Assembly (NCBI GenBank): GCA_043827405.1
Contig: JBDRPD010000034.1
Span: forward strand, 32,001-96,000
Origin: Elusimicrobiota bacterium
Lineage (GTDB): Bacteria; Elusimicrobiota; Elusimicrobia; UBA1565
Direction: 5' to 3'
DNA: 64,000 nt
Shown here: in pieces, positions 746-36,462 of the stretch
How the letters are laid out: each line of letters begins with the position of its first letter
Numbering within the stretch: the first letter of the stretch is position 1
Translations under genes and position numbers: made by a program
Notes under the pieces: model-generated
Seen by the model: the letters and a program-made list of their open reading frames with translations, nothing else
Database searches by the model: none
Told to the model about the DNA's origin: nothing

Positions 746-833
746 ATTGTTCGTGCAGCTGCCAGCATGTTCGCGTGATGTGGCGGACGGGTGGCGCTTA
801 CGGATGCGGTTATTTTTTGGAGGCACTTTCCAT

Positions 834-2557: not shown

Positions 2558-2566
2558 CGAGCGAGC

Positions 2567-3115: not shown

Positions 3116-3116
3116 T

Positions 3117-3584: not shown

Positions 3585-3599
3585 CGAGGAGATATCGTC

Positions 3600-5741
3600 A
3601 TGATCAGGGAACTCTTCAAAAAATGCATCGCCGTGCTCATCGCGCTGCTGCTGTCGGCGCAAGGTCAGGGCGCGTTGGTGTGGGCCGCGGAAGCGGCGAC
3701 GCTCGACGGCATCGAGGTCCAGCCGGATCAGGTGACGATGCACCTCAGCAAAGAGGTCCGCTATAATAGTTTTATAACGGTTGAGCCGCCGCGCCTGATC
3801 GTTGAACTCCTCAATACCGAGTTCGCCGCCGCGCAGAAGACTCAGCAGGGGCAGGGGACGCTCCTTAATCGCGTGCGCGCGGCGCAGTATCAGCGCGAGC
3901 CTAATCTAATAACCCGGATCGTGCTGGACCTTAAGAAGCTCGCCGCGTACCGGGCGAAGTGGGATGGCGGCAAGCTGATCGTCATTCTCATGGGCGGCGA
4001 CAGCGACAGCGATGAGGGCGCGGATGCGGTCGCGGACGAGGAGGCGCCGGCGGTAGAGCAGGCGCTCAAGCCCGCTATCGAGCCGGCCAAGAAAACCGTC
4101 GTCGAGCGGGAGTTGCGGCCCGTGGTCAAGCGGGTGCAGAAGCCCGTTCCCGTGCCGGAGCCCGCGCCGGTCATGCGCGATGCGGCCGCTGAGGACGTCG
4201 CGCCGGTGCCTGCGCCGGCGCTGAAACCGGAGGTCGCGGCAGTCGCGCCGGAGCCGGAGGCCGCGCCGAAGCCGGCCGCTATGCCGAAGCGGATGACGAC
4301 GCAGGCATCAGAGGAGCTGACCCGGATGGCTATGAGTTCAGACGTCCGTCCGGGAGCCCCGGTCGAGGCGGCCGGCCAGCGCCGTGCGAGTAAGGGCCGG
4401 AAGCCGGCGGATGCCGAAGCGCGCCGGGATATTCTGGCGACACTGTCCACGGACCCCATCACGCTGGATTTTGACAATACCAATATCCAGGACATTCTAA
4501 AACTCCTGGCGGTGAAGGCGAAGGTTAATGTCGTATACGGACCGGACGTTACCGGTGCCCTGACCCTGCATTTGTCGGACGTGCCGTTTAATGAGGCCTT
4601 CATGACGGTCCTCTCCATGCAGGGGCTGGTCGTCGCCCAAGTCGGCCAGAATATCCTGCGGATAATGACGCCGATTACGATGTCCAAGGAGCGGGCGTCG
4701 GCCGTGACGCAGACGCGCGTTATCCACTTAAACTACGTCAAGGCGGCTGACGTCAAGAAGGCGTTGGATAGCGTTCGCACGGCGGAAGCAAGGGCGGGTG
4801 TCGTGAATTTCGACGAGTACACAAATTCCTTAATCATTACGGACAGCCTTGACGGCATCGCCGCGGCCGAGCGGCTGCTGGCGGAGCTGGATGTCCGGCC
4901 CCGGCAGGTCATGATCGAGTGCAAGCTGGTGGAAGTTATCCTAAGCAAGGATTTCAACGTCGGCATTGAGTGGGACTATTTTAGCGTGGACCAAAGCAAG
5001 CAGTTCGGCCAGCAGGGCTGGGACGTCATCGGCACTGTGGCGAACCCGTTGGTTGTCGGCGGCGCCGTCGCCCGCCCGTTTGATAATAATGCGCAGCTCA
5101 ATGCGGTTGGAACGGCGATACCCGGCGCGGGCGGCCGCGGAACGGGCGTATTCCTGCCGGCGACGAACGTATTCGGCGCTTTCACCTATGGCCGCATAAC
5201 GAACAACTACTTTCTGAATGCGACCCTGACCGCTGCCGCCTCGCGCGGCAAGGCCAAGGTGCTTTCCGACCCCAAGATTTCGGCGCTTAATGGAGAGAAG
5301 GCGTCGATCGATATTACGACGAATATCCCTTACGTGACCTCCGAAACGGTGCAGGGCGCGACGCCGACCACGACGGAAAAGGTCTCCTATACCGTCACGG
5401 GTATTAAGTTGGAAGTCACTCCGAACATCAATAGCGATGGCAGCATCACTCTTGAGATTAAGCCGGAGGTCAGTCAGCCGTCTACGGTGGCGTCCGCCGC
5501 CGGTGGGACCGGAGCGATCTCTACCGACTCGCGCAGCGCGCAGACGACCGTGCACGTCAACGACGGCGACACCATCGTCATCGGCGGTCTCATCTCCGAC
5601 ACGGAAAGCGAGAACATCGCCAAAATCCCGCTGCTGGGTGATATTCCGATCCTGGGATGGCTGTTTAAGAAGAAAACAAACGTCCGCAACCGGACCGAGC
5701 TGCTGATCTTCGTCACCAGTAAAATCGTTAACCCCTCCTAG
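3600..5741 (+). CDS. pilQ: Type IV pilus secretin PilQ (AMIN domain, Pro/Ala linker, N domains, secretin)
   Basis: Signal peptide; PPRLIVEL/TRIVLDL AMIN motifs; ITLDFDNTNI; DEYTNSLII; QVMIECKLVEV; KIPLLGDIPILGWLFK; ELLIFVT. Confidence 0.95.
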   Translation: MIRELFKKCIAVLIALLLSAQGQGALVWAAEAATLDGIEVQPDQVTMHLSKEVRYNSFITVEPPRLIVELLNTEFAAAQKTQQGQGTLLNRVRAAQYQREPNLITRIVLDLKKLAAYRAKWDGGKLIVILMGGDSDSDEGADAVADEEAPAVEQALKPAIEPAKKTVVERELRPVVKRVQKPVPVPEPAPVMRDAAAEDVAPVPAPALKPEVAAVAPEPEAAPKPAAMPKRMTTQASEELTRMAMSSDVRPGAPVEAAGQRRASKGRKPADAEARRDILATLSTDPITLDFDNTNIQDILKLLAVKAKVNVVYGPDVTGALTLHLSDVPFNEAFMTVLSMQGLVVAQVGQNILRIMTPITMSKERASAVTQTRVIHLNYVKAADVKKALDSVRTAEARAGVVNFDEYTNSLIITDSLDGIAAAERLLAELDVRPRQVMIECKLVEVILSKDFNVGIEWDYFSVDQSKQFGQQGWDVIGTVANPLVVGGAVARPFDNNAQLNAVGTAIPGAGGRGTGVFLPATNVFGAFTYGRITNNYFLNATLTAAASRGKAKVLSDPKISALNGEKASIDITTNIPYVTSETVQGATPTTTEKVSYTVTGIKLEVTPNINSDGSITLEIKPEVSQPSTVASAAGGTGAISTDSRSAQTTVHVNDGDTIVIGGLISDTESENIAKIPLLGDIPILGWLFKKKTNVRNRTELLIFVTSKIVNPS

Positions 5742-22146: not shown

Positions 22147-23144
22147 GTTTTTGGGACGGCAAGAAGGTCCTGGTCACCGGGGGCGGCGGTTTTATCGGCA
22201 GCCATACCGCCGAAATGCTGCTGACGGCGGGACAAGACGTCAAGGTCACGGTGGCCGATGATTTTTCGCGGGGGCTGCGTGAGAATCTCGCCGACATCAA
22301 GGACCGCATCCGTATCGAGCGGGCGCAGCTGCAGGATATGGCGGACTGCCGGCGCGTATGCCGGGGGCAGGACGTCGTGATCAACCTGGCGGCCAAAGTC
22401 GGCGGAGTGGGCTACAACGCGGTGCACCCGGCGACCATGTTCCGGGAGAATGTGCGGCTGAGCACCTATATGATGCAGGCCGCGCAGGAAGCCGCCGTGG
22501 AGCGGTTCGCGGTGATCAGTTCGGCCTGCGTATACCGTCGTCACTGTACGATCCCGACACCCGAGACGGAGGGCTTTGCGGGGTGGCCGGAGTTTACCAA
22601 CGAAGGCTACGGCTGGGCCAAGCGCATGGCGGAGTTCGAGGCGGAGGCGATCCATAAGGAGTTCGGCATGAAGGCGGCGATCCTGCGGCCCTACAACTGC
22701 TACGGCCCGCGGGATCATTTCGACCCCAAAACTTCGCATGTTATCGCGGCGCTCATCCAGCGGGTGCTGGGCGGAGAGAACCCCGTGCGCGTCTGGGGCG
22801 ACGGCTCGCAAACGCGGGCGTTTCTTTACGTTGAGGATTTCGCCCGCGGCGTGCTGGAGGTGACCGAGCGTTACGCGGAATGCGATCCGATAAACCTCGG
22901 CGCCGACGAGGAGGTCCCGATCCGCGACCTGATCGATATGATCATCGAGCTGACCGGCTCGCGGGCCGCGGTGGAATTTGACACCACCAAGCCGGCGGGC
23001 CAGCCCCGCCGCAACTGCGATACTAAAAAGGCGCGCGAGAAGACGGGCTTTACCGCGCAGGTGAGCCTCAAAGAGGGGCTGCGGCGGACCATCGAATGGT
23101 ACAAGAAAACCCATGAAACGAAGCTTGATTCTGCTGACGTATAA
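22143..23144 (+). CDS. Extended SDR NDP-sugar epimerase/reductase (GDP-L-fucose synthase-like)
   Basis: TGGGGFIG, LAAKVGG, SSACVY, YGWAK (YxxxK), SHVIAALI, WGDGSQTR.FLYVED, KPAGQPRR. Confidence 0.85.
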   Translation: MSFWDGKKVLVTGGGGFIGSHTAEMLLTAGQDVKVTVADDFSRGLRENLADIKDRIRIERAQLQDMADCRRVCRGQDVVINLAAKVGGVGYNAVHPATMFRENVRLSTYMMQAAQEAAVERFAVISSACVYRRHCTIPTPETEGFAGWPEFTNEGYGWAKRMAEFEAEAIHKEFGMKAAILRPYNCYGPRDHFDPKTSHVIAALIQRVLGGENPVRVWGDGSQTRAFLYVEDFARGVLEVTERYAECDPINLGADEEVPIRDLIDMIIELTGSRAAVEFDTTKPAGQPRRNCDTKKAREKTGFTAQVSLKEGLRRTIEWYKKTHETKLDSADV

Positions 23145-23802
23145 CGAGATAGAAGCCGCGCCGAAGGTCCTGGAGAACGTTCCGCTCGACTGCGCCGACG
23201 AGGTCATCGCGGTCGACGGCGGATCACAGGACGGAACCATCGACTTTTTGCGGTCCAAGGGGCTGCGCGTGGCGGTGCAGGAGAAGCGCGGCCGCGGCAT
23301 CGCCTTCCAGGTCGGGATGGAGGAGTCGCAGGGCGACCACGTCGTCTACTTCAGCCTCGACGGCAACGAGGACCCCGACGATATCCCGAAGCTCTTCGCG
23401 GTGCTGGAGGAGGGCGCCGATATCGCGATCGCTTCGCGCATGATGCGCGGCGCCTTTAACGAGGAGGATGTCCAGTGGATCCGCCTGCGCAAGTGGGTCA
23501 ACCACCTATTCTCCAATATCGCCAATATCCTATGGAATCGCGGCTGCTATGTCACCGACACGATTAACGGTTTTCGCGGCATCACTCGCAAGGCATTCGC
23601 CGCCGCCTGCCCGGACGCCGACGGTTTCGTTATTGAGTATCAGATGTCGATTCGGGCGATGAAAAAAGGGATGAAGATCGTCGAGATCCCCACCCATGAA
23701 GGCCAGCGCCTCGGCGGCGAAAGCACGGCCAAGTCATTTCCCACCGGGGTGATCTTTATTAAGCAGCTGCTTAAGGAAATCCGGTTAGGCCGCGCGTTCT
23801 GA
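23113..23802 (+). CDS. GT2 DPM-synthase-like glycosyltransferase
   Basis: LTYNE, VDGGSQDGT, FSLDGNEDP, IASR, TDTINGFR, R.GGES. Confidence 0.88.
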   Translation: MKRSLILLTYNEIEAAPKVLENVPLDCADEVIAVDGGSQDGTIDFLRSKGLRVAVQEKRGRGIAFQVGMEESQGDHVVYFSLDGNEDPDDIPKLFAVLEEGADIAIASRMMRGAFNEEDVQWIRLRKWVNHLFSNIANILWNRGCYVTDTINGFRGITRKAFAAACPDADGFVIEYQMSIRAMKKGMKIVEIPTHEGQRLGGESTAKSFPTGVIFIKQLLKEIRLGRAF

Positions 23803-23816
23803 GCGGCGTTCTGCCT

Positions 23817-24512
23817 TTATATATTGAAGGTCTCGAAGCCCGTGAGCATCTTCACGTCGGCTCCCGTGTGCTCGGCAGCTATCTTCTTTAGGAATTCGGC
23901 GGCGGCCGTCTCCCGCTCCAGCTCGACCGAGTAGGTGAGGATCAGCCGGCCGCCGAGCACCTCCGAGCTTAGCAGGGAGCAATGGCCCCCGGCGAGCCGC
24001 CGCAGCGTTCGCTCTAGTTCGGAAGTGCGGTCGGAATCATCCGGCAGCGCGACGCGCACCAGCCGTTCCTCGCGGCGGATGGTGCCGAACTGAATGCGGT
24101 CGAGAAGAAGGACCATGCCGGAAGCCATGCCGGTGAAAATGATCGCAAACCAGTATAGTCGCACTCCGCAGGCCATGCCGACGGCCATCGATAGGAAGAT
24201 GAAGGCCGTATCGCGCGACTCGCGCACTGCGTTTCGGTAGCGGATGATCGACAGTGCGCCGACTAGGCTGAAGGCGCGCGCCAGGTTGCTGCCGATGATC
24301 AGCATGATGAACGAGATGGTCACGGCCATTAGAATCATGGTGACGCTGAATGAGCGCGAGTAGGATACGCCGGAGTGGGTCCGGCGATAGACCAGGCCGA
24401 CGACCATCGCTAACGCGAAGCTCAGCAGGAGGCTTATCACGAACTCAAGAGAGGTGAAGCCGGCGCCGTTTTCTGCAGACCGCACGGCGAGCTGTTTGAG
24501 GAATTCATCCAT
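23817..24512 (-). CDS. DUF4956 family membrane protein
   Basis: IIGSNLARAFSLVGALSIIRYRNAVRESRDTAFIFLSMAVGMACG signature; several TM helices plus a small soluble C-terminal domain. Confidence 0.88.
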   Translation of the reverse strand: MDEFLKQLAVRSAENGAGFTSLEFVISLLLSFALAMVVGLVYRRTHSGVSYSRSFSVTMILMAVTISFIMLIIGSNLARAFSLVGALSIIRYRNAVRESRDTAFIFLSMAVGMACGVRLYWFAIIFTGMASGMVLLLDRIQFGTIRREERLVRVALPDDSDRTSELERTLRRLAGGHCSLLSSEVLGGRLILTYSVELERETAAAEFLKKIAAEHTGADVKMLTGFETFNI

Positions 24513-25221
24513 GACGTGCCAGCTCCGGAACTAGGGGCGCGTGGCGCCGAAAGCGCTCGACGCCGCCCCCGTATTTTGAGTAGGCGCGCGCGAAAAGCTC
24601 GAGGTCGGCGACCGTCTGGGAAAGCCATGTGGGTATCCGGTGATCGAACTTGAGTTCGAGCACGTGCAGCCCCGGCGGCAGGACGCGCAGGTCGTCGATT
24701 CCGACCGGCCGCGAAAAAAGATCCGGTCCGCCGCAGCGGACGTTTTCGTCGAGCGTGACGCGCAGGCTCGAGCCGAGAAGGTCGACAAGGGCGATGCGGT
24801 CATAGGTCACGGTGAGGATCGGAAGGTGGGGGCGGCGCGCGATTTCCGCAGTCGCGGCGCCCAGCGCTCGCCCCAGGGCGCTGGCGAAAGGATCGTGCAC
24901 CAGGTCGAGGGCCTCCGGCAGTGAAGCGGGAGCGCGCGTCTTCTCGACGCTGCGGTAACGGCGTGTTTTTACCTCGAAGAAGCCGCGCTCTCCCGCGGCG
25001 TCGTAGCCGCGCAGGCGGAGCTTTCGCTTGATGCAGTGGCCGTCGACAATGTCGCGGTAGTGCCGCAGGTCGGCGGTGTCGAAGTACAGCGAGCGGACGC
25101 GATAGTGCCGGCGGCCCTCGAGGTGGGGGTCGTGCCGCATCCAGCGTGACGCCCGGGCTAGAAAGGCCTGCGCCGTCCGGCGGTGGATCACGTATTTGAT
25201 CTCGTAGCGGTTGCGCGCCAT
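24505..25221 (-). CDS. VTC-domain (polyphosphate polymerase / TTM fold) protein
   Basis: RYEIKY, Y.VRSLYFDT, KRKLRLRGY, FFEVK, V.YDR.A, RVTLD, VLELKF, YSKY. Start is ATG 25221 or 25245. Confidence 0.9.
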   Translation of the reverse strand: MARNRYEIKYVIHRRTAQAFLARASRWMRHDPHLEGRRHYRVRSLYFDTADLRHYRDIVDGHCIKRKLRLRGYDAAGERGFFEVKTRRYRSVEKTRAPASLPEALDLVHDPFASALGRALGAATAEIARRPHLPILTVTYDRIALVDLLGSSLRVTLDENVRCGGPDLFSRPVGIDDLRVLPPGLHVLELKFDHRIPTWLSQTVADLELFARAYSKYGGGVERFRRHAPLVPELARHG

Positions 25222-25276
25222 GCGGTAAGCTCTTGATCCGGCCATATCATACTCATTATCGGAGCCATTTGATAAA

Positions 25277-28219
25277 ATGCGCCCGTTCATGCCGCATCCT
25301 ATTCTCCGGCCGGTGCGCCGTCCGCGAAAATCCGAAACCGCTTTGCTGTCCGTTCTGGTGTTGGCGAGCGCCGTGTTGCTGACTTTCTGGATCCGAGGGG
25401 GCGAGAAGAAGTCGGCCGTGCCCGCTGGCGAAGAGATGCCGTCCTTCCGAGCTCCGGCGGCCGGTGGGCTGTTCGCTTTGCGGCGGCTCCCGCATTTTAG
25501 TGTCGACGTCGCACCCGAGTTCCTGCGCGCCTTGGACCGGGCGCGTCCGCCGGTGCCCGTGAGCTGCCGCAAGGTGCGCTATAAGTACGTTCCCGCGCGT
25601 GGCGCTGGGCTGGACGGAGAGGCGCTGCCGGGGCCGTATCGGCTTAGATACCGAGGTTACTGCGCCCCGCACTGGCGGCATCGGCAGAGGTCCTTTAAGC
25701 TGCGCGGGCCGGGTGGACGCTCTCCGTACGGCTACCGCACGCTGAACCTCAACGCACTGGCGATCGATCCCTACCTCTTCGAGCCGTGGGCGGCTCAGGT
25801 CCTGTACCGGTCGGGCGGCATCGCCAGCCGGAGCGCTTTGGCCCGGCTGACGCTTAACGGGCAATACGATGGGCTGCGTTCTCTGAGCGAGAACCTGGAT
25901 GCGGACCTTTTGGCGCAGCAGGGCCTGCCCGAGGGCGCGCTGTACCGGGAGCGGGAGCACGCCGCGCTGGGGCGCCAATATGACTCGCTGGCCGAGCTGA
26001 AGGATTTCTGGCAGGCGAATACTCGGCAGAGCGGCTGGCAGGATCTTTGGGCGCTTAACGCCGCGATCCGCGGCTCGGTGCGCGACGGATCGGCCGAGTT
26101 CCGGCGGCGCATCAACGTCCCGCACTACATCAACTACAGCGCTGTCATCACCATAACAGGGACGAGACATCTCGGCGACCACAACATCCCGGTATATCGG
26201 CCGGGATGGGAGCCGCGATTTATCCCCGTCGGGTACGACTTCTTTGAGAACGCGATGGGCGAGCTCGGCGGCAGATTCGTCGCAGCCCAGACGCCTTACA
26301 TGGCCATGAACTGGCTGTCGCAGCTCTTTTGGTCGGACCCCGGCCTGCGCCGGCAGGTACACCGGCGGGCGGCCGAGATCCTGCGGCGTTTCCCCGACCT
26401 CGCCGGCTGGTACGACGATATCCTAAAGACGGCGGAGCCGGCGTTGAGCGAAGACCTCCCGCGGGGGAGGGCGCTGTCGCATATCGGGAGCGTGTCAACG
26501 CTGGCGGACTACCGCGAGAGCAATACTGTGCGGCGCCGGCTACGCATGCGCGTCGAGTTTCTGCGCCGCGCCTATTTGAGTCCTGCGGCACGCATTACGC
26601 CGCGTTGGAGCGGCCAGCGCGAGGCGCAGCTGGCGATCGAAGGCGCCGGAGCCTATTCCGTACTGCTGGCTCCGGAGCGGGACGTGTGCCGGAAAGGCGA
26701 CATGGTCCGTGTCCGCGTCCATAAGGGAGCTTGGCGCACGGTCATCGCCTGCGCGGCGGGCAAGCCCGCCGCGCGGGAGTTTTTGGCCGAGCGCAACGAT
26801 ATCGAGCGGCCCGAGCTGTCGACGCCCGGCGGCGTCCTGCGCAACAGCATCGGCGCCGTGCTCGTGGATATCGAGAACCGAAGCGGGATGCGGCTCATCC
26901 GGCCGGTGATCCGGTCGCTGCAGACCGGAGCGGACGTGCCGGTTAGCGAAGACTGGCCGTTTGACATCCGCCGGCTCGCCAACGGCAAAGCGGCGCTCGG
27001 CGCTCCGGCGCTGCCCTACCGCGAAGACCTGAGCGCCGGAGACGGCTATACTTGGATCGCCGTGCCGGAGCGCCAGACGCCCTTCTCGTATGACGCGGCG
27101 GCGCATATCTTAACCATCGACGGAGGGGTAGCGGGGTCCGAGACTTTCGGCTCCTACGGCCCGCTGCTGTGCTGGCGCCGTGACGGGCGCGGCTTCTGCT
27201 ACGAGTTCAACCGTTATTATGCGGCGGGGGATGAGCCGGCGGCGGAGCCGTCGCCGGCGGCGGATTGGAGGACGCTGGACGCAATCGGCCTGGCGCGGAA
27301 GATCGGCCTGCACAAGGTCGCCCCCGGCCGCTGGCGCGTCCGCCGGTCGGCTGTGCTGCCCGCGGGCTTGGCGCTCGAGTTCGCCGCCGGAGCGCGCCTG
27401 TACTTCGACCCGGGCGTCTATCTTATTGTGCGGGGCGACGTCAGTTTTCCCGCGACGGGGGAGCACGTGACGTTTACGGCTTACGATAAGGAATGGGGCG
27501 GCTTGGTGCTCGCCCGGGACGGCGGAAGCGTCGAGGTCAGAAACGCGCACTTCAGTCGTGCCAACGAGTTCTATCACCAGGGGCGACGCTACACCGCGGC
27601 GCTGACCATCGACGGCCCGGCAAAAGCGCGGATTGCCGCCTCCGCCTTTACCTCTAATTTTGGCGACGACGGCCTCAATGTCGTCGGCGCCGAGGCCAGC
27701 GTTACCGGCAACATATTCCTCGACAATCGCGACGCCATGGACTTCGACCGATGTAAGACCATGCTGTGGGAGAACATCGTGGCACGTTCCGCCGACGACG
27801 GCGTCGACTTCGGCGGCGGCACGGCCGCGTTGTGGGACAATATAGTCTGCGGCTCCGGCGACAAGGGGATATCGGTCGGCGAGGGCGCCGAGGTCCGCGT
27901 CTCTAGTTCGCTGGTCGCGGGCAACAACGTGGGCATCGGCGTCAAGGAAGATTCACGCGCGGTCCTGCGCTCCGTGCTGCTGAGCGGTAACCGCATCGGA
28001 GCCAACGTCTATAAAAATCCGGAGGCCTCGGCGTCGGCGCCGCCGGGGGTTGTCGCGGGAGCTTTTCTGCTTCACCGCAACGAGACGGACTACCAGAAAG
28101 ACGGCGTCCCGGAGAAACCGGACGGCGGCGCGTCGGCGCGTCCTGATGACCCCGTTTTCCGCTATCTGCTCTTTGAAAGCAAACGGCGGGGCAGGAACAT
28201 CTGTCCGGGGCTGCCTTAG
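25277..28219 (+). CDS. CotH-kinase-family protein with C-terminal right-handed beta-helix, membrane-anchored
   Basis: N-terminal TM; RYRG...SFKLR, LNLNA..DP...E, L.LNGQYDGL...E, HN....F.PVGYD; C-terminal repeats DDGLN/DAMDFD/DDGVD/GDKGISVGE/GIGVKEDS. True start may be ATG 25289. Confidence 0.8.
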   Translation: MRPFMPHPILRPVRRPRKSETALLSVLVLASAVLLTFWIRGGEKKSAVPAGEEMPSFRAPAAGGLFALRRLPHFSVDVAPEFLRALDRARPPVPVSCRKVRYKYVPARGAGLDGEALPGPYRLRYRGYCAPHWRHRQRSFKLRGPGGRSPYGYRTLNLNALAIDPYLFEPWAAQVLYRSGGIASRSALARLTLNGQYDGLRSLSENLDADLLAQQGLPEGALYREREHAALGRQYDSLAELKDFWQANTRQSGWQDLWALNAAIRGSVRDGSAEFRRRINVPHYINYSAVITITGTRHLGDHNIPVYRPGWEPRFIPVGYDFFENAMGELGGRFVAAQTPYMAMNWLSQLFWSDPGLRRQVHRRAAEILRRFPDLAGWYDDILKTAEPALSEDLPRGRALSHIGSVSTLADYRESNTVRRRLRMRVEFLRRAYLSPAARITPRWSGQREAQLAIEGAGAYSVLLAPERDVCRKGDMVRVRVHKGAWRTVIACAAGKPAAREFLAERNDIERPELSTPGGVLRNSIGAVLVDIENRSGMRLIRPVIRSLQTGADVPVSEDWPFDIRRLANGKAALGAPALPYREDLSAGDGYTWIAVPERQTPFSYDAAAHILTIDGGVAGSETFGSYGPLLCWRRDGRGFCYEFNRYYAAGDEPAAEPSPAADWRTLDAIGLARKIGLHKVAPGRWRVRRSAVLPAGLALEFAAGARLYFDPGVYLIVRGDVSFPATGEHVTFTAYDKEWGGLVLARDGGSVEVRNAHFSRANEFYHQGRRYTAALTIDGPAKARIAASAFTSNFGDDGLNVVGAEASVTGNIFLDNRDAMDFDRCKTMLWENIVARSADDGVDFGGGTAALWDNIVCGSGDKGISVGEGAEVRVSSSLVAGNNVGIGVKEDSRAVLRSVLLSGNRIGANVYKNPEASASAPPGVVAGAFLLHRNETDYQKDGVPEKPDGGASARPDDPVFRYLLFESKRRGRNICPGLP

Positions 28220-28223
28220 ACGG

Positions 28224-29231
28224 CTAGAGTCGGGCGGCTTCTTCCAGGCAGGGACGGATCGCCGCTTCCGCGCGGCGGTAGGCCGCCGGAGCCAGCCAGG
28301 CATGATAGCGCGTTTTCAGGTAGAGTGCCCGGGCGCCTTTGAGCGCGCCGAGCAGGGCGGCGGGCAGCAGGGTCTTCTTGTAGAGGGGATGCGACGGGGC
28401 CCGTTCGCGGAATTCCCGGATTAATACCTTGCGCGCCTCGTCGGGCCTGAGCCCTTTGAGCAGATAGGTCGCCACTTCGACCGCCAGCGCTTCGCGCTTT
28501 TTTTCCAGCACATCCGGGGGCGGGTTTCCCGACTTAAGCGCCAGGAGCGCCTCTGCGAAGTCTTTGTGGTAGTCGCCGGTTATCTGTGCCTCATGGATGC
28601 GCCGCACCGACAGCGGTTCGCGGATCGCGCCTACCAGCATCCCGGCGCCGAGCATGCGGCTGTAGAGTTCGGTGTCTTCCAAAATCTTTAGGTCTTCGCG
28701 GTAGTAGCCGTGCTCGGCAAAGGATTCCCGGCGTACCGCGATATTGGTCGTCACGTAGGGCAGGTGCTCGTCGCCGACGGCGTAGTAGCCGGGAACCGCG
28801 CCCTCCGGGATGTCCCGGTCGGGAGCAAAGAGCGGGCCGATGATGCGATCAAAGCGCCGCACATAGGCGTTGGAGAACCAGAATCCGATCTCGGGGCGCC
28901 GCTCCGCGGCGGCGCGGAAGCGGCCCAGGCGTTCGGGCAGATACAGGTCGTCGGAATCCAGGAAAGTCACGAATTTGCCGCGGGCGCGGCGGATCGCCAG
29001 GTTGCGGCAGACATGCTGCCTGCGGTTTTCCTGCTGGTGGATGATGTTTAGGCGCGGATCTTTGGGCAGGGCGCCGAGCACTCTGCGGGTATCATCGGTG
29101 GAGCCGTCATCGATCACCAGGCATTCAAAATCCCGCTCCTTTTGGCGCAGTACGCTCAGCACCGCCGCCGCGGCCATGCGGGCCCGGTTGTAAGTGGGGA
29201 GAATAATGGAAAAAAACGGTTTCTCCGCCAA
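28224..29231 (-). CDS. GT2 (GT-A) soluble glycosyltransferase
   Basis: SIILPTYNR, IDDGSTD, RN.AI..ARG..VTFLDSDD, ED.EL. Confidence 0.92.
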   Translation of the reverse strand: MAEKPFFSIILPTYNRARMAAAAVLSVLRQKERDFECLVIDDGSTDDTRRVLGALPKDPRLNIIHQQENRRQHVCRNLAIRRARGKFVTFLDSDDLYLPERLGRFRAAAERRPEIGFWFSNAYVRRFDRIIGPLFAPDRDIPEGAVPGYYAVGDEHLPYVTTNIAVRRESFAEHGYYREDLKILEDTELYSRMLGAGMLVGAIREPLSVRRIHEAQITGDYHKDFAEALLALKSGNPPPDVLEKKREALAVEVATYLLKGLRPDEARKVLIREFRERAPSHPLYKKTLLPAALLGALKGARALYLKTRYHAWLAPAAYRRAEAAIRPCLEEAARL

Positions 29232-29234
29232 GGA

Positions 29235-29768
29235 CTAAACCTTCGGTTTGTGCAGGCCGTGCGTGAACTTGAAGAGCGCGAGACAGATCAAGACGATGAA
29301 GATGCCGTACGCTCCCTGCTCGGCATATCTCGCGGCGGAGTAGGCTTCGGGCCGCAGCATCTGGATCACCATGAGAGCTATTAGTGCGGCATAGGAGGTG
29401 GCGAGGGTCTGCATTTGGGTTCCGTAGAGCGCCGACCCCATGGGGGAAAGCAGGAGCAGCAGCCAGATCGGCTTCCAGTAGAATCCGAAAAAGTAGACGA
29501 GGAGGATATTGGTCGCGGTGTTGAGCCAAACCCGCAGCAGGACCCTTTTTCTCCGCTGCTCCGGTGAAGTTCCCAGCCAATCGAAGGATATCATGTTGAG
29601 AAGCGCGGAGAAGACGATCAGGCCGATGATAAACTCGCGCTTGGGGCTCGGCGGCATCGAGACGATAAAGCCGGATCCCACCAGAAAGATCGAAAGCGGC
29701 GTGAAGTAATTACTGACGGTATGCGTCATCTTCTTGCTCGTGTCGGCGGGTTTGTTAGTCATATTCAT
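29235..29768 (-). CDS. Hypothetical integral membrane protein (about 5-6 TM)
   Basis: 177-aa hydrophobic ORF filling the gap between the pilin and the GT2 with 0-3 bp spacing. Confidence 0.75.
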   Translation of the reverse strand: MNMTNKPADTSKKMTHTVSNYFTPLSIFLVGSGFIVSMPPSPKREFIIGLIVFSALLNMISFDWLGTSPEQRRKRVLLRVWLNTATNILLVYFFGFYWKPIWLLLLLSPMGSALYGTQMQTLATSYAALIALMVIQMLRPEAYSAARYAEQGAYGIFIVLICLALFKFTHGLHKPKV

Positions 29769-30206
29769 TCAATAGGTGGACCATGCCGTGCCCTTGCCGT
29801 CGGTGTGGGTGCAGTTCACCCATACATTCCCATAGTCGGGCGCGGTCGCATCGTTGTTGTATGCCCAGCCGCCGGCGTCATCGATGCCGTTCGGGCTGGA
29901 GACGTTCAGGACGGACATCGAGTCGGGGTGATATTCCTTCAGCGACGTTTTGGGAATCTCCGCCAGATAACGGCCATTGACGGTGAGCGCTCCCACCTCG
30001 TAAGGGTGCTGCGTCAGGACATCCGCATAGTAGATCGAAAGGGCGCTGCGGATCGAGCCGAGATTGCCCTTGGTGGCCGAATCCCGGGATTTGCGCATCA
30101 CGGTTCCGAGCCGCTGCAGGGCGATCGTGCCGAGGATGCCGATGATAACCGTGACGATCATCAGCTCTATGATCGTATAGCCGCCGTGTTTTCGCAGACG
30201 CTGCAT
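29769..30206 (-). CDS. Type IV pilin / pseudopilin-like protein
   Basis: Class III signal MQRLRKHGG|YTIIELMIVTVIIGILGTIAL with E+5; amphipathic helix NL.SIRSAL.IYY.D. Confidence 0.9.
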   Translation of the reverse strand: MQRLRKHGGYTIIELMIVTVIIGILGTIALQRLGTVMRKSRDSATKGNLGSIRSALSIYYADVLTQHPYEVGALTVNGRYLAEIPKTSLKEYHPDSMSVLNVSSPNGIDDAGGWAYNNDATAPDYGNVWVNCTHTDGKGTAWSTY

Positions 30207-30240: not shown

Positions 30241-32268
30241 CTACGGGAGCGCGCCGCGGGGCGCCGGCGTTCTCTCTATGCGGAGTATATGCGCCGGTAC
30301 TTCGCGGGGACGAAGCTCCACGTAGTTGCGCCTTCCGCGCCACGGGTAGCGGGCGTCGGTCAGCAGATCGTGTACCTGATAGGGCTGGTTCTCATCGAGG
30401 CCGAAGTCGGCAAGGGGGAGGTCTACCCAGCCGGACTGCGGGCGCAGAGGGTCCAGGCTGATAATCACCACCACGGGGTCGTTCGGGGACTCCTCCGCGT
30501 GTTTGCTGTAGCACAGGATATTATCGTTGTCCACGGCGAGGAATCGCAGGCTCCAGTCGTTGTGCAGAGCCGGAAGGGCTCTTCGTATGCCGTTGACGCG
30601 CGCGATAAGCCCTTGTATCCCGCGTGAGTCTCCGCGGTTCCAATGCCGGAGCTGATACTTTTCCGAGTTCAAGTACTCTTCCTGGCCTTCCGCTTTCGCG
30701 CTGCTTTCGCAGAGCTCGAACGCCGGTCCGTAGATGCCGTAGCTGGCGCCCAAAGTGGATGCGAGCAGGTAGCGGACCATGAAGGCGGAATGCCCGCCTT
30801 GTTGGAGGTAGGCTATGAGGATGTCGGGCGTATTGGTCCATAAGTTTGGACGGTAGAATTCCCGGACTTCGCTCTGCGTCAGTTCGGTGAAGTACTCGAT
30901 GATCTCGTGCTTGCCGGTCTTCCAGGGGAAGTAGTTGTAGGACTGGGTAAATCCCAGCTTGGCGAGCCGGTACATTATCTTGGGCCGGGTGAAGGCCTCG
31001 GCCAAAAACAGGACGTCCGGATGCTGGGTGCGAATCTCCCGGATCAGCCACTCCCAGAACTCAAAAGGCTTGGTGTGCGGGTTGTCGACGCGAAATATCC
31101 GCACCCCCTGTTCTATCCAGAATAAGAATATGCTCCGGCATTCCTCCCAGAGTTCGCGCCACTGCGCGCATGCAAAGTCGAACGGATAGATGTCCTCGTA
31201 TTTTTTGGGCGGATTTTCGGCGTATTGGATTGTGCCGTCGGGCCGGCGGCGGAACCATTCGGGATGTTCCTTCACGTAGGGATGGTCGGGCGAGCACTGC
31301 AGGGCGATATCCAGGGCGACTTCCAGTCCGCAGCGGGAGGCCTTCTCGATTAGTTCCCGGAAATCGGCCAGCGTGCCCAGCGCGCCGTGGATGGATTTAT
31401 GGCCGCCCTCTGCGGACCCTATCGCCCAGGGGCTTCCGGGATCTTCCGGTCCCGCCGTGAGCGCATTGTTCTTTCCCTTGCGATGCGTACGCCCGATGGG
31501 ATGAATGGGCGGCAGATAGAGGACGTCGAACCCCATATCCGCGATGTAAGACAGCCGGCCGACGCAGTCGCGAAAAGTTCCGTGCTCGCCGGGCTTCGGG
31601 GCGCAGGAGCGAGGAAACATTTCGTACCATGCGCCGCAGCGCGCCCGGTCCCGGTCGATCCATGCTTCCAGCTCTTTCCCATAGCTCGCTATTCGGCGGC
31701 GGTCGGGGTAGCGGCGTGCCAGTTCGGCTATCTCCGGGCCGAGGATGCCGCGGATACGCTCGCCGCTGCCGGTTTCCTGGCGCAGTTTTTGCGCGCAGGC
31801 GCGCAGGCGGCGCGCATCGGCGCCGGCGGCGCGCCGGGCCGTCTGCTCCAGGCGGCCGGCTCCGATGAGCAGATCTACCCGCAAATCCTGTCCTGCCGCC
31901 AGGCGCTTGTCGAGGTCGCGCAGCCATGTCATGAAGGGGTCGATCCATGCCTGGGCCGTGAATTTATAGCGTCCGATCTCGGTCGCGGTGAATTCCGCCG
32001 ACCAGCAGTCGTTTCCGACGGGCTGAAGGGGGATCACGTTCCAGTCCGGCCGAGATTCGTGCCGGTATCTGAGATTGCATACGAGTTCTTCATGCCCGTC
32101 GGCGAAAATGTGCGCCGTTACTCGAATCTTCTCCCCCACCGTCCTTTTGAGGGGGAAGCGCCCGGCGTCTATTTCGGGCATCAGCCTCTCGATCACCACG
32201 CGCTGCCGGCCCTTGGCCGAAAAAGTCCGATGAGCCGTCTTCGGGGCGCCCGCTTGATTGTTGTTCAT
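30241..32268 (-). CDS. glgE: Alpha-1,4-glucan:maltose-1-phosphate maltosyltransferase GlgE (GH13_3)
   Basis: WYEMFPRS, MGFDVLYLPPIHPIG, RKGKNN, GSPWAIG, YAENPPKKYEDIYP, FRVDNPHTKP, LAEAFT, NTPDI, NSEKYQ. Confidence 0.96.
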   Translation of the reverse strand: MNNNQAGAPKTAHRTFSAKGRQRVVIERLMPEIDAGRFPLKRTVGEKIRVTAHIFADGHEELVCNLRYRHESRPDWNVIPLQPVGNDCWSAEFTATEIGRYKFTAQAWIDPFMTWLRDLDKRLAAGQDLRVDLLIGAGRLEQTARRAAGADARRLRACAQKLRQETGSGERIRGILGPEIAELARRYPDRRRIASYGKELEAWIDRDRARCGAWYEMFPRSCAPKPGEHGTFRDCVGRLSYIADMGFDVLYLPPIHPIGRTHRKGKNNALTAGPEDPGSPWAIGSAEGGHKSIHGALGTLADFRELIEKASRCGLEVALDIALQCSPDHPYVKEHPEWFRRRPDGTIQYAENPPKKYEDIYPFDFACAQWRELWEECRSIFLFWIEQGVRIFRVDNPHTKPFEFWEWLIREIRTQHPDVLFLAEAFTRPKIMYRLAKLGFTQSYNYFPWKTGKHEIIEYFTELTQSEVREFYRPNLWTNTPDILIAYLQQGGHSAFMVRYLLASTLGASYGIYGPAFELCESSAKAEGQEEYLNSEKYQLRHWNRGDSRGIQGLIARVNGIRRALPALHNDWSLRFLAVDNDNILCYSKHAEESPNDPVVVIISLDPLRPQSGWVDLPLADFGLDENQPYQVHDLLTDARYPWRGRRNYVELRPREVPAHILRIERTPAPRGALP

Positions 32269-33470
32269 TGTGGAATCAGACGCGCGTAAAGTTTTACCGT
32301 TTCTTGGGCGATCCTATCCCAGCTGAAGTCCCGTTCCACGCGGGCACGTCCGTTCTTGCCGAACGTCTCCCGCAGGGAGGGGTCGGATAAGAGGCGGTTT
32401 ATGGCGCAAGCCAGATCCGCGGAGAACTCGGCCGGATGTTCCGGTTCGAATGTGCCGTCCGTCTTGGAACGGAAAGGTACGGTGAGGCCCGTCTCTCCCG
32501 GGACCACGACTTCTTTTATCCCGCCCACGTCGGACGCCACGACGGCGGTCTCGCACGCCATGGCTTCCAGATTGATGATGCCGAAGGGCTCATAGATGGA
32601 TGGGCAGCAGAATACGGCGGCGTTGCTGTAGAGCTCGATCGCGTCGGTTTTGGACACCATCTTTTCGATCCAGACCACGTTCTTCCGGGTCTTTCTTATC
32701 GCGCGGACCCGCTCCGCCATCTCCCGGGCGATCTCGGCGGTATCCGGAGCCCCGGCGCAAAGCACTACCTGGACGCGGGGGTCGATCTTCGGTATTGCGT
32801 TGACGAGGTGGATGATGCCTTTTTGCCGCGTAATTCGGCCCACGAACAGGACGTAGGGGATATCCGGGTCCACGCCGGATTCCGTGAGGAAGCGCTTCTC
32901 GTTATTTTTTCTATATTCGTTGATGTCTATGCCGTTATGGATCACGTGGATCTTTTCGGGAGGGACATCATAGCAGCGAAGAATATCCTTCTTGACCTCC
33001 CGCGACACGGCGATCACGGCGTCCGCGGAAAGAATGGCGGTCCTCTCTATCCAACCGCTCAAATCATAGGCGTTTCCCAATTGCTCTCTCTTCCAGGGCC
33101 TTAGAGGCTCCAGCGAGTGGGTCGTGATGACCAGGGGGACGCCATGGAGGATTTTCGCGAAGTGGCCGCCCAGCATGGAATACCAAGTGTGGCAGTGCAC
33201 GACATCGGCGGTATTATCCTTGCAGAAGTTGAGGTTGATGCTGACGGCCTCCAGCGCCTTGGCAAAGCCGGGATTCGCGGACTTGGATATTTCCTTCCAG
33301 GGGTCGAAACCCCGCACGGTCAGGCGCGGCCGATCGACGCGCTGATCGCCGAAGCAGCGGACCTCGACGTCGATCAGCTTCGCCAGTGCGTTGGCGAGGT
33401 ATTCCACCGCGACGCCGGCTCCGCCGTAAACATTCGGCGGATATTCGTTCGTGTAGATGGCGGCTTTCAT
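32265..33470 (-). CDS. glgM: GT4 glycogen synthase / alpha-maltose-1-phosphate synthase (actinobacterial GlgA/GlgM type)
   Basis: EYPPNVYGGAGV, HCHTWY, HSLEPLRPWKREQLG, FVGRITRQKG, CPSIYEPFGIINLEAMAC; overlaps the glgE start. Confidence 0.9.
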   Translation of the reverse strand: MKAAIYTNEYPPNVYGGAGVAVEYLANALAKLIDVEVRCFGDQRVDRPRLTVRGFDPWKEISKSANPGFAKALEAVSINLNFCKDNTADVVHCHTWYSMLGGHFAKILHGVPLVITTHSLEPLRPWKREQLGNAYDLSGWIERTAILSADAVIAVSREVKKDILRCYDVPPEKIHVIHNGIDINEYRKNNEKRFLTESGVDPDIPYVLFVGRITRQKGIIHLVNAIPKIDPRVQVVLCAGAPDTAEIAREMAERVRAIRKTRKNVVWIEKMVSKTDAIELYSNAAVFCCPSIYEPFGIINLEAMACETAVVASDVGGIKEVVVPGETGLTVPFRSKTDGTFEPEHPAEFSADLACAINRLLSDPSLRETFGKNGRARVERDFSWDRIAQETVKLYARLIPQ

Positions 33471-33568: not shown

Positions 33569-34273
33569 ATGCCGATTCAAGCGGCCATAATTGCCGGCGG
33601 CCAGGGCCAGCGCATGCGTGCGGTTAGCGATGTGCCCAAGGTTATGCTGCCTGTCGGCGGAAAGCCGATTCTGGAACATCAGATAGAATGGCTTAAAAAA
33701 TATGGTTTTTCCGATGTTTTTTTGTGTCTCGGCTATAAGGCGGATGTCGTGCGGTCGCATTTTGGCGACGGCTCGAAGTGGGGCGTACAGCTGACCTACC
33801 GGATCGAAGAGACTGCACGCGGTACAGCGGGCGCGGTTGCCGATTTGGCGCCGTCGCTTTTGGGCGATCTGCTCATTGTATACGGCGACTTGTTTCTGCA
33901 AATGGACTGCGCGCGCCTGCTGGCGGAGCATGGGCGCCATGACGGGCTTGCCACCTTGGTGGTACGCCGGACCGAGCATCCGCATGATTCCGATCTGGTG
34001 ATGGCGGACCCGGAGGGGCGTATCCGCGCAATCGGGCGCCTGCGGGACGGTCAAGTCTCGGGTGATTTGGGCTGCGCGGCTGTCTGGGTCGTGCGGCGGG
34101 AGCTTTTGGCGCGTGTTCCGGCGGACCGGCCCAGCGATTTCGGCCGGGAGATTTTCCCGCAGGCGGTCGCCGACGGGGAGAAGCTCATGGCCTACCGTAC
34201 CGAAGAACCGGTGCTGGATATTGGGACGCCGGTGCGCTACGAGGCGTTCTGCCGGGCGTACGATTTGCAGTGA
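33569..34273 (+). CDS. hddC: Sugar-1-phosphate nucleotidyltransferase, probably heptose-1-phosphate guanylyltransferase
   Basis: IAGGQGQRM....PKVMLPVGGKPILE, RGTAGA, YGD, DIGTP; clustered with gmhB/hddA/gmhA. Confidence 0.75.
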   Translation: MPIQAAIIAGGQGQRMRAVSDVPKVMLPVGGKPILEHQIEWLKKYGFSDVFLCLGYKADVVRSHFGDGSKWGVQLTYRIEETARGTAGAVADLAPSLLGDLLIVYGDLFLQMDCARLLAEHGRHDGLATLVVRRTEHPHDSDLVMADPEGRIRAIGRLRDGQVSGDLGCAAVWVVRRELLARVPADRPSDFGREIFPQAVADGEKLMAYRTEEPVLDIGTPVRYEAFCRAYDLQ

Positions 34274-34857
34274 GCGGGCGTTGGGCGGTTTTTCTCGACC
34301 GCGACGGCACGCTCAATGAGGAGGTCGGTTTGGTGTCCCGGCCCGAGCAGCTGGTTCTGCTGCCGGGTGCGGTCCGCGCGCTCAAGGCGCTGCGCGGAGC
34401 GGGGGCGCTTTTGGTCGTCGCGACCAACCAGCCGGTGGTCGCGCGCGGTCTTATCGACGAGGAAGCGCTCGCCGGAATTCATCAGCGCCTGCGGGAACTT
34501 CTCGCGGAGGAAGGGGTCTCATTGGACGCAATATACTACTGCCCGCACCACCCGGAAAAGGGACATCCGGAGGCGCCGGATCCGCGCTACCGGCGGGACT
34601 GCTCCTGCCGCAAGCCCAAGCCGGGGATGATCCTCTCGGCGGCAGAACGTTTCGGCGTCGATATGGCGCGTTCGTTTTTTGTCGGCGACAGTACGCGCGA
34701 TGTCGCCGCGGCCCGCGCCGCGGGGTGCCGGCCGGTGCTGGTGCGCACGGGATTCGCCGGGCGCGACGGGAAATGTCCGGAGGCGCGGCCCGACGCGGAG
34801 GTCGCGGATATCGCCGCGGCGGCGGATTGGATACTCGGACCGGCGGGGGCGCATTGA
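34270..34857 (+). CDS. gmhB: D,D-heptose 1,7-bisphosphate phosphatase
   Basis: FLDRDGTLN, VATNQ, YYCPHHP, CSCRKPKPGM, VGDS..D. Confidence 0.92.
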   Translation: MSGRWAVFLDRDGTLNEEVGLVSRPEQLVLLPGAVRALKALRGAGALLVVATNQPVVARGLIDEEALAGIHQRLRELLAEEGVSLDAIYYCPHHPEKGHPEAPDPRYRRDCSCRKPKPGMILSAAERFGVDMARSFFVGDSTRDVAAARAAGCRPVLVRTGFAGRDGKCPEARPDAEVADIAAAADWILGPAGAH

Positions 34858-35825
34858 TCCTCTCAAAAACGCCGTTTCGCATCAGCTTCGCGGGCGGAGG
34901 CACGGATCTGTCTTCGTTTTACCGCAATGAGCCGGGAGCCGTCGTCTCCACGGCGATCGACAAGTATATGTATGTGACGATCAATAAGTACTTCGAAGAT
35001 CAGGTGATCCTGAAGTACTCGCGCACCGAACAGGTGGAGAGCGTGCTCCAGGTCCGCCATCCCCTGATTCGCGAGTCGATGCGGCTGACCGGGGTGCGGC
35101 GGGGTATTGAGATTACTTCCATGGCCGATATCGTCGGCGGGACCGGGCTGGGTTCGTCGTCGAGCTTCACCGTCGGCGCGCTGCATGTCCTGCATGCGTT
35201 TAAGGGCGAACGTGTCTCGGCCCGGCGGCTGGCTCGGGAAGCCTGCGAGGTCGAGATCCGGCGCGTTCGGGAACCGATCGGCAAACAGGATCAGTATATC
35301 GCCGCTTACGGCGGTTTTCAGTTTATTGAGTTCATGCCTGATGAAGCCGTGCGCGTTTCCCCGATCAAGTGTCCGTCCGAGAAGCTCCGTCGTCTCGACG
35401 GCAGCCTGCTGCTTTTTTACACGGGAAAGACGCGGCGCGCCAATACCATACTTAAGGGCGTACGGGACGGAATGCGTTCCAGGAAAGATATGATGCGCGC
35501 GCTGCGGAAGCTGGCCGACGACACCCGCCGGGAGCTGCAGCGCGGGAACGTCGAGAATATGGGGCGGCTGCTGCACGAAGGCTGGCTTATCAAGCGGGAC
35601 CTGCATGGCGGCATATCCAGCCCGGAGATCAACCAGGTCTACGCGCGGGCGCGCCGGGCGGGCGCCGCGGGCGGAAAGATTTTGGGCGCCGGCGGCGGCG
35701 GTTTCCTCCTGCTGTACGCGAGCAGGGGAAAGCAGGCCTCGGTGCGCCGGGCCATGCGCGGTTGGCGCGAAGTTCGTTTTCGGTTCGAGCCGGAGGGTTC
35801 GAAAATTATCCACATAGACCGTTGA
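34854..35825 (+). CDS. hddA: D-glycero-alpha-D-manno-heptose-7-phosphate kinase (GHMP)
   Basis: TPFRISFAGGGTD, GTGLGSSS, IGKQDQY..AYGG, GGKILGAGGGGFLL; TTG start overlapping the gmhB stop. Confidence 0.88.
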   Translation: MILSKTPFRISFAGGGTDLSSFYRNEPGAVVSTAIDKYMYVTINKYFEDQVILKYSRTEQVESVLQVRHPLIRESMRLTGVRRGIEITSMADIVGGTGLGSSSSFTVGALHVLHAFKGERVSARRLAREACEVEIRRVREPIGKQDQYIAAYGGFQFIEFMPDEAVRVSPIKCPSEKLRRLDGSLLLFYTGKTRRANTILKGVRDGMRSRKDMMRALRKLADDTRRELQRGNVENMGRLLHEGWLIKRDLHGGISSPEINQVYARARRAGAAGGKILGAGGGGFLLLYASRGKQASVRRAMRGWREVRFRFEPEGSKIIHIDR

Positions 35826-35832
35826 GGATTTT

Positions 35833-36462
35833 ATGATCAAGGAAAAGAAGCGGCCGGGACTGGCCGCCGCAAATTTTACCGGGACCGGCCCCGGGGGGCT
35901 GAGCCCCGAAAATTTCGCGCGCTGGTATCGCGAGGTGGAGATCGAACAATGGGGAAAGCTGGACATGAAGGCGGTTTCCCGGATCGCCAAGGCGCTGGAG
36001 CTCGCTGAGCGGCGCAAGCGGCATGTTTTTGTGATGGGCAACGGCGGCTCGGCGGCCACCGCATCGCATATCGCAACAGACTGGGCCAAGACGGCTGAGC
36101 GGCCGGGCAAGCCCCTGCTGCGCTGCATCTCGCTCAACGATAATGTGCCCTTTATGACCGCGATCAGCAACGATTTGGACTACGAGGACCTGTTCGTGCG
36201 CCAGCTGCAGAGCTTTCTGCAGCGCGGCGACGTCGTCGTGCTCATCAGCGGCAGCGGCAATTCGCCCAATGTGGTCAAAGCGGCAAAGTACGCCAAGCGG
36301 CAAGGCGCGAAAGTGATCGGCTTCACCGGCTTTACCGGCGGCAGGCTGCGGAAGCTGGCGGATATCACGCTCCACATAGACAGCGACCAATACGGCGTGA
36401 TCGAGGACCTGCATATGGCGGTGGGCTCGCTGATCGCGTTCTATCTGAAGCAGCGCAAGTGA
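35833..36462 (+). CDS. gmhA: Sedoheptulose-7-phosphate isomerase (SIS domain)
   Basis: GNGGSAA.ASH, TAISND..Y...F..Q, ISGSGNSPNV, EDLH. Confidence 0.88.
   Translation: MIKEKKRPGLAAANFTGTGPGGLSPENFARWYREVEIEQWGKLDMKAVSRIAKALELAERRKRHVFVMGNGGSAATASHIATDWAKTAERPGKPLLRCISLNDNVPFMTAISNDLDYEDLFVRQLQSFLQRGDVVVLISGSGNSPNVVKAAKYAKRQGAKVIGFTGFTGGRLRKLADITLHIDSDQYGVIEDLHMAVGSLIAFYLKQRK

Follow-up and report, generated by a model that had tools for sequence, protein, structure and literature searches.

Co-occurrence of a VTC-type polymerase, a DUF4956 membrane protein and a histidine-type CotH/beta-helix fusion in a glycan locus of an Elusimicrobiota bacterium

Introduction

This study concerns a cassette of three genes in a 64,000-nucleotide stretch of an Elusimicrobiota bacterium (assembly GCA_043827405.1, contig JBDRPD010000034.1, positions 32,001 to 96,000), referred to here as the window, whose own numbering is used unless a locus is named. 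The genes encode a VTC-type polyphosphate (polyP) polymerase, a DUF4956 membrane protein and a CotH kinase-fold domain fused to a parallel beta-helix. The closest described system is the accessory trio of Gram-positive pel loci, for which cotH, poly-phosphate polymerase and DUF4956 genes are listed in the available text of Whitfield et al. (10.1101/768473; PMC7112168). The three domains of Streptococcus intermedius SIR_1592-1594 have been described, and the accessible parts of a preprint and of PMC12345266 report that the trio was not found outside pel. In Clostridium perfringens, the NELoc-2 locus likewise has genes for VTC, a membrane protein and CotH next to one for a GT2 glycosyltransferase; the available part of that article (PMC2879425) gives annotation only, with no mechanism, and its table notes no beta-helix fusion. 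Nothing further on bacterial VTC trios appears in the accessible sections of PMC8250860 and PMC10657179.

The trio of the window shares with the Gram-positive pel trio the adjacency of the same three families, the proximity to glycan-synthesis genes, a secreted CotH protein and a membrane protein of the MgtC/ACT type. It differs in that the pel trio CotH carries FN3, whereas the CotH domain of the window is fused to a beta-helix and has a histidine in place of an aspartate, and in that it lies in a locus with GT2, GT4 and GT-C genes. No pel genes were identified among the Pfam-scanned neighbours (GT2, PMT_2, epimerase and pilin); no pel-specific search was made. With regard to the eukaryotic VTC complex (Vtc4/Vtc3/Vtc1; 3G3Q, 7YTJ, 8I6V), the TTM catalytic domain, all nine active-site residues and a small membrane partner of several helices, in which basic residues are conserved, are common to both. 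However, the eukaryotic polymerase is fused to an SPX and a membrane domain, both missing from the window VTC, and DUF4956 is not detectably related to Vtc1.

Bacillus CotH (5JD9/5JDA) shares the fold over the whole domain, the RG loop, the Asn and the metal-binding Asp. Unlike Bacillus CotH, the window fusion has a His for the Asp, a second histidine (His132), an N-terminal anchor, a 200-residue beta-rich insert and the C-terminal beta-helix. In addition, family scans found CotH in Bacillus subtilis without VTC or DUF4956. The AlgG/AlgE epimerases, GH28, GH87 and RbmB have in common with the C-terminal part of the fusion a right-handed beta-helix (Z 22-26) and a conserved Asp cluster on successive coils, but identity is 9-17%, there is no significant profile match, and a Lys is found where GH28 has His.

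Results

Conservation of the cassette

The three genes form a real, conserved cassette. The genomes of GTDB were scanned with a motif of the beta-helix alone, independently of the kinase loop and of the partner genes. From 405 stretches, 372 were confirmed and the best 80 were kept, which gave 77 loci, and partners were scored with purpose-built hidden Markov models (HMMs). These loci span many phyla, including one archaeon, with an over-representation of Saprospiraceae, and the open reading frame (ORF) bearing the motif also carries the kinase domain in 68 of the 77. VTC was present in 52 loci, DUF4956 in 56, both in 43 and either in 65. Fifty loci have flanks of 2 kb or more on both sides; of these, 32 have both partners, 44 either and six neither.

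Seventeen of the 25 VTC-less loci, picked for their long flanks, were checked genome-wide, and VTC was encoded elsewhere in all 16 genomes behind them. The six loci with neither partner come from five genomes, in each of which DUF4956 adjoins VTC at another position. Within the phylum, CotH and VTC scored above cut-off in the same 4 of 301 genomes, which are kin and not independent, some genomes of the set being incomplete; among 61 relatives, VTC and the kinase domain likewise coincide in four genomes, this genome included. In a set of 14 control genomes, the three families scored in the same three, Corynebacterium glutamicum and Bacteroides thetaiotaomicron among them, with CotH additionally in B. 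subtilis. The co-occurrence on which the preliminary description, made from the window's sequence, depends is thus far beyond chance. What is new is the form of this published trio, in which a His-type CotH domain is fused to an enzyme-like beta-helix.

In every one of the 77 loci the genes are co-directional, and the window is the only divergent case seen. The cassette of the closest relative (L012:5411-8195, genome G002) is co-directional as well and has internal deletions in the CotH fusion and DUF4956 genes together with an intact VTC gene, reflecting either joint decay or assembly collapse.

The genome also contains a second, very divergent trio (L006:8521-12291, G000:C88), in which DUF4956, His-type CotH/beta-helix and VTC genes are co-directional. 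It sits among glycosyltransferase and methyltransferase genes, and a gene for a CDP-alcohol phosphatidyltransferase comes after it. Its CotH fusion was missed by Pfam, and since the first ATG comes after the hydrophobic N-terminus, an unusual start would be needed. In six Bacteroidota loci (L016, L045, L050, L060, L066 and L072) the His-type CotH/beta-helix gene is repeated in tandem, with two to four copies, and VTC is often found elsewhere in the genome. Patescibacteria with small genomes and one Micrarchaeota archaeon also carry the cassette, in most cases within glycan loci (L019, L022, L023, L025, L039, L069, L077 and L020), and in some of these the kinase and beta-helix domains are on separate neighbouring genes.

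A histidine in the catalytic loop of CotH

The predicted model of the CotH fusion has a predicted local distance difference test (pLDDT) score of 92 and a predicted template modelling (pTM) score of 0.90, and its residues 70-459 match Bacillus cereus CotH (5JD9) with Z 32.6 and a root-mean-square deviation of 2.9 over 337 residues. Single-sequence and profile alignments both place His298 (codon 26168-26170) on Asp224 of 5JD9, B. cereus numbering being the count on the 5JD9 sequence. As D228 and D251 of B. subtilis CotH are 23 residues apart, like D224 and D247 of B. cereus, residues can be mapped between the two. According to the available text of PMC7821199, the D228Q and D251A forms of B. 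subtilis CotH are inactive.

The histidine is widespread among relatives. Of 138 aligned homologs of the fusion, 135 cover the catalytic loop; 121 of these have a His 5 or 6 residues before a conserved Asn and 14 have another residue. Of 84 kinase ORFs taken from genome loci, 82 extend over the loop, and 78 of these have the His. In the subgroup with six-residue spacing an Asp often follows the His (HQD) and may substitute for the lost one, judging by the alignment, while the window's own subgroup has no conserved Asp after the His. The other features of the site are well kept: the metal-site residues Asn303 (B. cereus N229) and Asp321 (B. cereus D247, B. subtilis D251) are found in 132 and 128 of the 138 rows, respectively, Gly127, Ser139 and the RG loop are conserved, and His132, within the RG loop, occurs in 133. 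A quick tree placed the five non-His rows on one side of a branch with a support of 85, the branches being long. The family assignment in the preliminary description, a CotH-family kinase, is borne out, but the position of the catalytic Asp holds His298 and the protein is not a canonical kinase.

The evidence on the type of CotH found beside VTC genes comes from six plasmid-collection records and one locus of the phylum. The Asp is kept in the Enterococcus and Planococcus trios, which were read directly, and in the Nonomuraea trio, assigned by motif, that is, in three of the five Gram-positive trios in which CotH was hit or annotated; these three Asp-keeping CotHs are without the beta-helix motif. 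Nine His-type ORFs also lack the beta-helix motif used here.

Membrane anchor and beta-helix

The fusion has one hydrophobic segment, at residues about 19-42 by hydropathy and 18-40 in the model, preceded by the basic stretch RPVRRPRK. Among 116 full-length homologs, 94 have an N-terminal hydrophobic segment, with more Lys and Arg before it than after it in 76 of the 94. The protein is accordingly predicted, from hydropathy and charge in both the window and its homologs, to be N-in and C-out with its bulk facing outward, in keeping with the extracytoplasmic location first suggested for it.

The C-terminal domain is modelled as a right-handed parallel beta-helix, and its best fold matches are enzymes: AlgG (Z 26.3), AlgE6 (Z 25.8), RbmB (Z 24.3) and GH87. 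Ten residues, namely D798, D819, D822, D824, D841, D844, D862, K863, E869 and K890, are each present in 130-135 of the 138 rows. D819, D840/D841, K863 and K890 align, weakly (E 0.06), to the NTD/DD/GHG/RIK motifs of GH28 (1K5C), which we take to be catalytic there; position 840 is Asn in 98 of the 138 rows. The single sequence of the domain gave no match in the PDB. This conservation is a lead towards an enzyme or a metal- or sugar-binding site rather than a spacer. Together with the His for Asp exchange, the conserved Asp/Lys cluster of the beta-helix extends what had been described before.

The VTC polymerase

By Pfam and hydropathy, the VTC protein is a soluble, single TTM tunnel domain without SPX and without a hydrophobic segment. 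A profile built on 52 neighbours matches yeast Vtc4 (3G3Q) with E 3e-22, and its significant matches are VTC subunits only; searched against the PDB as a single sequence, the protein gave no match, its identity to Vtc4 being low. Nine residues of Vtc4 are described as triphosphate and metal ligands in the available part of a cryo-EM study (10.1101/2023.01.27.525886): K200, R264, R266, K281, Y359, R361, E426, S457 and K458. All nine are present in the window VTC, as K9, R69, R71, K85, Y140, R142, E189, S215 and K216; eight of them are found in 52 of 52 aligned rows and the equivalent of S457 in 50. The same source names K458 as the single residue setting Vtc4 apart from the inactive Vtc2/3, and its equivalent, K216, is among the invariant residues. 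The protein thus probably makes polyP from ATP, as an enzyme of the Vtc4 type, in agreement with the initial assignment. As the genome already encodes PPK1 and PPK2, an extra polymerase linked to a membrane protein would fit a separate polyP pool.

Four long ORFs that could have represented fusions of the VTC or DUF4956 genes were inspected and proved to be read-through artefacts. A gene for a CYTH-domain protein, a second TTM-fold protein, is located directly upstream of DUF4956 in the trio of one relative (L011:13738-14775, genome G005). A VTC-like gene is also found in four unannotated 'Bacteriophage sp.' records (phage collection hits H8-H11), which may be bacterial fragments.

The DUF4956 membrane protein

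The model of DUF4956 (pLDDT 87) comprises five predicted helices between residues 21 and 139 and, at the C-terminal end, an ACT domain (144-231), which matches many ACT folds (Z 8-10), including the C-terminal domain of Mycobacterium tuberculosis MgtC (Z 8.2). The protein scores against the MgtC/SapB family with E 1e-4 and 22.7 bits, below the cut-off of 31.4, and the membrane plus ACT architecture is common to both. Likeness to Vtc1 was found neither by profile nor by fold, the fold lists being filled by the ACT domain. Just after helix 3, Arg91 and Arg93 are invariant in 52 aligned rows, all of which have Lys or Arg at position 97; by the positive-inside rule, these residues would face the cytoplasm. 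The mouth of the yeast VTC channel bears basic rings, as shown in the available text of 10.1101/2023.01.27.525886. By analogy, the invariant basic residues of DUF4956 are compatible with an anion path, and no more. Of the split VTC machine proposed at the outset, the catalytic half is upheld by the residues of the polymerase, whereas the membrane half, being MgtC/ACT-like, is an analogy only.

Layout of the locus

The features of the locus are given in Table 1. The identities first assigned to the three genes were confirmed by Pfam, profiles and models. The fusion also scores with NosD, just above the Pfam cut-off, and with Beta_helix, just below it (E 5e-5); NCBIfam assigned no family to any of the three genes. 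The VTC and DUF4956 genes overlap by 8 nt (24505-24512). In public gene calls, VTC begins at 25221 and the CotH fusion at 25289, which corresponds to Met5 and a protein of 976 aa, so that the overlap and the divergent gap of under 70 bp noted earlier are real. An alternative ATG for VTC lies at 25245, and the gap shrinks to 31 bp if the outermost ATGs are taken. A consensus scan detected one sigma-70-like site in the gap, on the minus strand from 25275 to 25246 and facing VTC; the 4.9 kb scanned held 2 such sites, compared with 0.5 +/- 0.7 in shuffles.

Table 1. Features of the cassette and its flanks (window positions)
Feature	Position	Strand	Description
GT2 glycosyltransferase, flanking	23113..23802	+	convergent on DUF4956; Pfam PF00535
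DUF4956 membrane protein gene	23817..24512	-	231 aa; PF16316 E 4.8e-18, 65.9 bits vs cut-off 30.6
VTC gene	24505..25221	-	238 aa; PF09359 E 1.2e-29, 104 bits vs cut-off 23
Divergent intergenic gap VTC/CotH	25222..25288		67 bp, from starts of public gene calls
CotH/beta-helix fusion ORF	25277..28219	+	980 aa; CotH PF08757 E 1e-15, 58.5 bits vs cut-off 23.8
N-terminal membrane anchor or signal segment	25328..25396	+	residues 18-40; helix in model, hydropathy
CotH kinase-fold domain	25481..26653	+	residues 69-459; profile vs 5JD9 E 2e-54
Beta-rich middle region	26654..27253	+	residues 460-659; model; variable between homologs; no family assigned
Right-handed parallel beta-helix	27254..28147	+	residues 660-957; fold match
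GT2 glycosyltransferase, flanking	28224..29231	-	convergent on CotH fusion; Pfam

A Logan contig from run X1 covers 22500-28586 and shows no differences there, which led us to reject a misassembly; the divergent layout is thereby reproduced in a second assembly, possibly from the same reads. An invertible element around the CotH gene was likewise rejected, there being no matching inverted repeat at the gene ends. The G+C content of the three genes (0.61-0.67) is similar to that of the genome (0.63).

Glycan and pilin genes around the cassette

Pfam confirmed the glycosyltransferases noted on both sides of the cassette, and upstream of it two PMT_2 (GT-C) genes, more GT2 genes and an NDP-sugar epimerase gene were identified. 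Glycan genes near other copies of the cassette were scored with local HMMs seeded from this genome, which are partial, and 2000 random 16.5-kb windows of this genome served as control. Of the 39 loci flanked by 5 kb or more on both sides, 23 have a glycan-synthesis gene, compared with 26% of the random windows, and 16 have two or more, compared with 8%. The link between the cassette and glycan genes is therefore real, as the surface-glycan setting originally ascribed to it would have it, but not universal.

Of 16 family relatives, 14 also have the downstream GT2 gene, its neighbours varying from one to the next, and the cassette is absent from all 11 stretches retrieved around this gene in relatives. 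Conserved synteny with the flanking glycan locus was rejected, as all 11 stretches are rearranged. A prepilin gene (29769-30206) lies two genes from the cassette; the pilin put forward as a possible acceptor in the preliminary description found no backing. None of the 11 relative loci has a homolog of this pilin beside the flanking GT2 gene.

Between the pilin and GT2 genes, at 29235-29768, there is a gene for a 177-aa multi-helix membrane protein with no match in Pfam or NCBIfam. Beside the pilin gene and inside the glycan locus are genes on the minus strand (30241-33470) that we take to be GlgE-like and glycogen-synthase-like, followed by what is presumably a heptose-pathway-like gene set (33569-36462). 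The locus opens with a presumed pilMNOPQ-like operon (747-5741), which suggests an outer membrane and type IV pili.

Discussion

We propose, with a probability of roughly 35%, that the three genes act as one accessory, envelope-modifying unit. VTC would make polyP from ATP in the cytoplasm and DUF4956 would carry it through the inner membrane. The anchored CotH domain of the His type would then transfer phosphoryl groups from polyP to a surface glycan bound by the beta-helix. As no adaptor or outer-membrane channel gene adjoins the cassette, the product would remain on the outer side of the inner membrane, which is where GT-C enzymes act. The individual steps differ in likelihood. Passage of polyP through DUF4956, with which the basic residues are compatible, is given slightly less than even odds, and polyP as donor with a glycan as acceptor is somewhat more tentative still. 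A phospho-histidine intermediate on His298 or His132 is unlikely, and equally doubtful is the most specific form of the proposal, in which an outward-facing kinase fold would work without ATP, receiving polyP through a DUF4956 pore and transferring phosphate via phospho-histidine to the glycan bound by its own beta-helix. The model of the preliminary description, in which polyP or another phosphoryl donor is made and exported for use by CotH on a glycan, remains plausible. That no pathway of this kind has been characterised holds for the mechanism; the trio itself has been published, and its genes have been deleted in S. intermedius. Our literature search, from whose scope most subscription journals and supplements fell, found neither a description of the His/beta-helix form nor one of export through DUF4956.

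Several observations weigh against the proposed unit. As D228Q abolishes the activity of B. subtilis CotH, the His form may be incapable of phosphate transfer, and as three of the five Gram-positive trios keep the Asp, the His is unnecessary for pairing with VTC. DUF4956 resembles MgtC/ACT and not Vtc1, and in 16 of the 39 well-flanked loci the HMMs used here detected no glycan gene. In B. cereus, extracellular polyP is PPK-independent and no VTC4 homolog is present, according to the available text of 10.64898/2026.08.04.742738. The deletions made in S. intermedius also count partly against it, since a strict linear pathway predicts like phenotypes: in the accessible parts of PMC12345266, deletion of the DUF4956 or the CotH gene cut aggregation in sputum medium by more than 50%, the two deletions shifted Pel in opposite directions, and no such effect is reported for the VTC deletion. 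The S. intermedius proteins, for which catalytic residues are described and which have no beta-helix, may however differ from the His/beta-helix form.

The main rival explanation, although itself rather unlikely, also has polyP made and exported, but takes the CotH domain of the His type for a pseudokinase, which would bind or cap the chain. The beta-helix would then be the catalytic part, as a glycosidase, lyase or epimerase, and the outcome would be a surface polymer that is remodelled or decorated with polyP. Most of the homologs that cover the loop have lost the catalytic Asp, and the D228Q form of B. subtilis CotH is inactive. The Asp and Lys residues of the beta-helix, which line up with the GH28 motifs in a domain whose best fold matches are AlgG, AlgE, RbmB and GH87 enzymes, are as conserved as those of the kinase. 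In contrast, a pseudokinase would not readily explain why Asn303, Asp321, Ser139, the RG loop and His132 stay conserved, nor why the Asp is replaced by one reactive residue rather than by a scatter; furthermore, the GH28 match is not significant, and nine His-type ORFs are without the beta-helix motif.

It is also unlikely, and slightly more so, that VTC and DUF4956 are a cytoplasmic, MgtC-like pair balancing phosphate or ATP, with polyP kept inside and CotH using ATP or another donor delivered otherwise. The scores of DUF4956 against MgtC and the ACT fold are what such a pair would show, the available text of the S. intermedius preprint proposes that polyP stays cytoplasmic, and the phenotypes of the three deletions differ (PMC12345266). 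Yet cytoplasmic polyP is already covered by PPK1 and PPK2 in this genome, and the presence of VTC in every one of the 16 tested genomes with the CotH fusion would be left unexplained.

A protein acceptor, be it a pilin or a surface or periplasmic protein, supplied by the donor route of the proposed unit, is quite improbable. Characterised CotH, as in Bacillus, is a Ser/Thr protein kinase according to the accessible text of PMC7821199, and the prepilin gene is close by. Nevertheless, the fused domain has the fold of a polysaccharide enzyme, and the 11 relative loci do not keep a homolog of the window pilin beside the flanking GT2 gene. No more probable is a bacterial VTC with triphosphatase activity, or one whose product is a different phosphoanhydride such as a short polyP or a polyphosphorylated sugar or lipid, the tunnel serving different reactions in other TTM enzymes. 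For this reading the basic tunnel shared by TTM/CYTH enzymes, the low identity to Vtc4 with an empty single-sequence PDB search and the CYTH gene upstream of one trio could be cited, but against which stand the invariant equivalent of Lys458 and a profile that is significant only for VTC subunits.

These data correct the published statement confining the trio to pel loci: its authors, in the available text, found none outside such loci, whereas we found it across many phyla. Through its VTC gene, the cassette also provides a candidate for a bacterial polyP polymerase other than PPK, just as extracellular polyP that does not depend on PPK is coming to be described, namely in B. cereus. The clade of His-type CotH/beta-helix proteins is large, as judged from the 372 matches of the GTDB scan, and represents either new phosphotransfer chemistry or a widespread pseudokinase. 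Secreted proteins with a kinase fold are common in bacteria, and the source of their phosphoryl donor outside the cytoplasm is a question that this cassette addresses in three genes. If the most specific form of the proposal is true, a kinase fold would operate outside the cytoplasm with no need of ATP, and bacteria would have a counterpart of VTC-coupled translocation.

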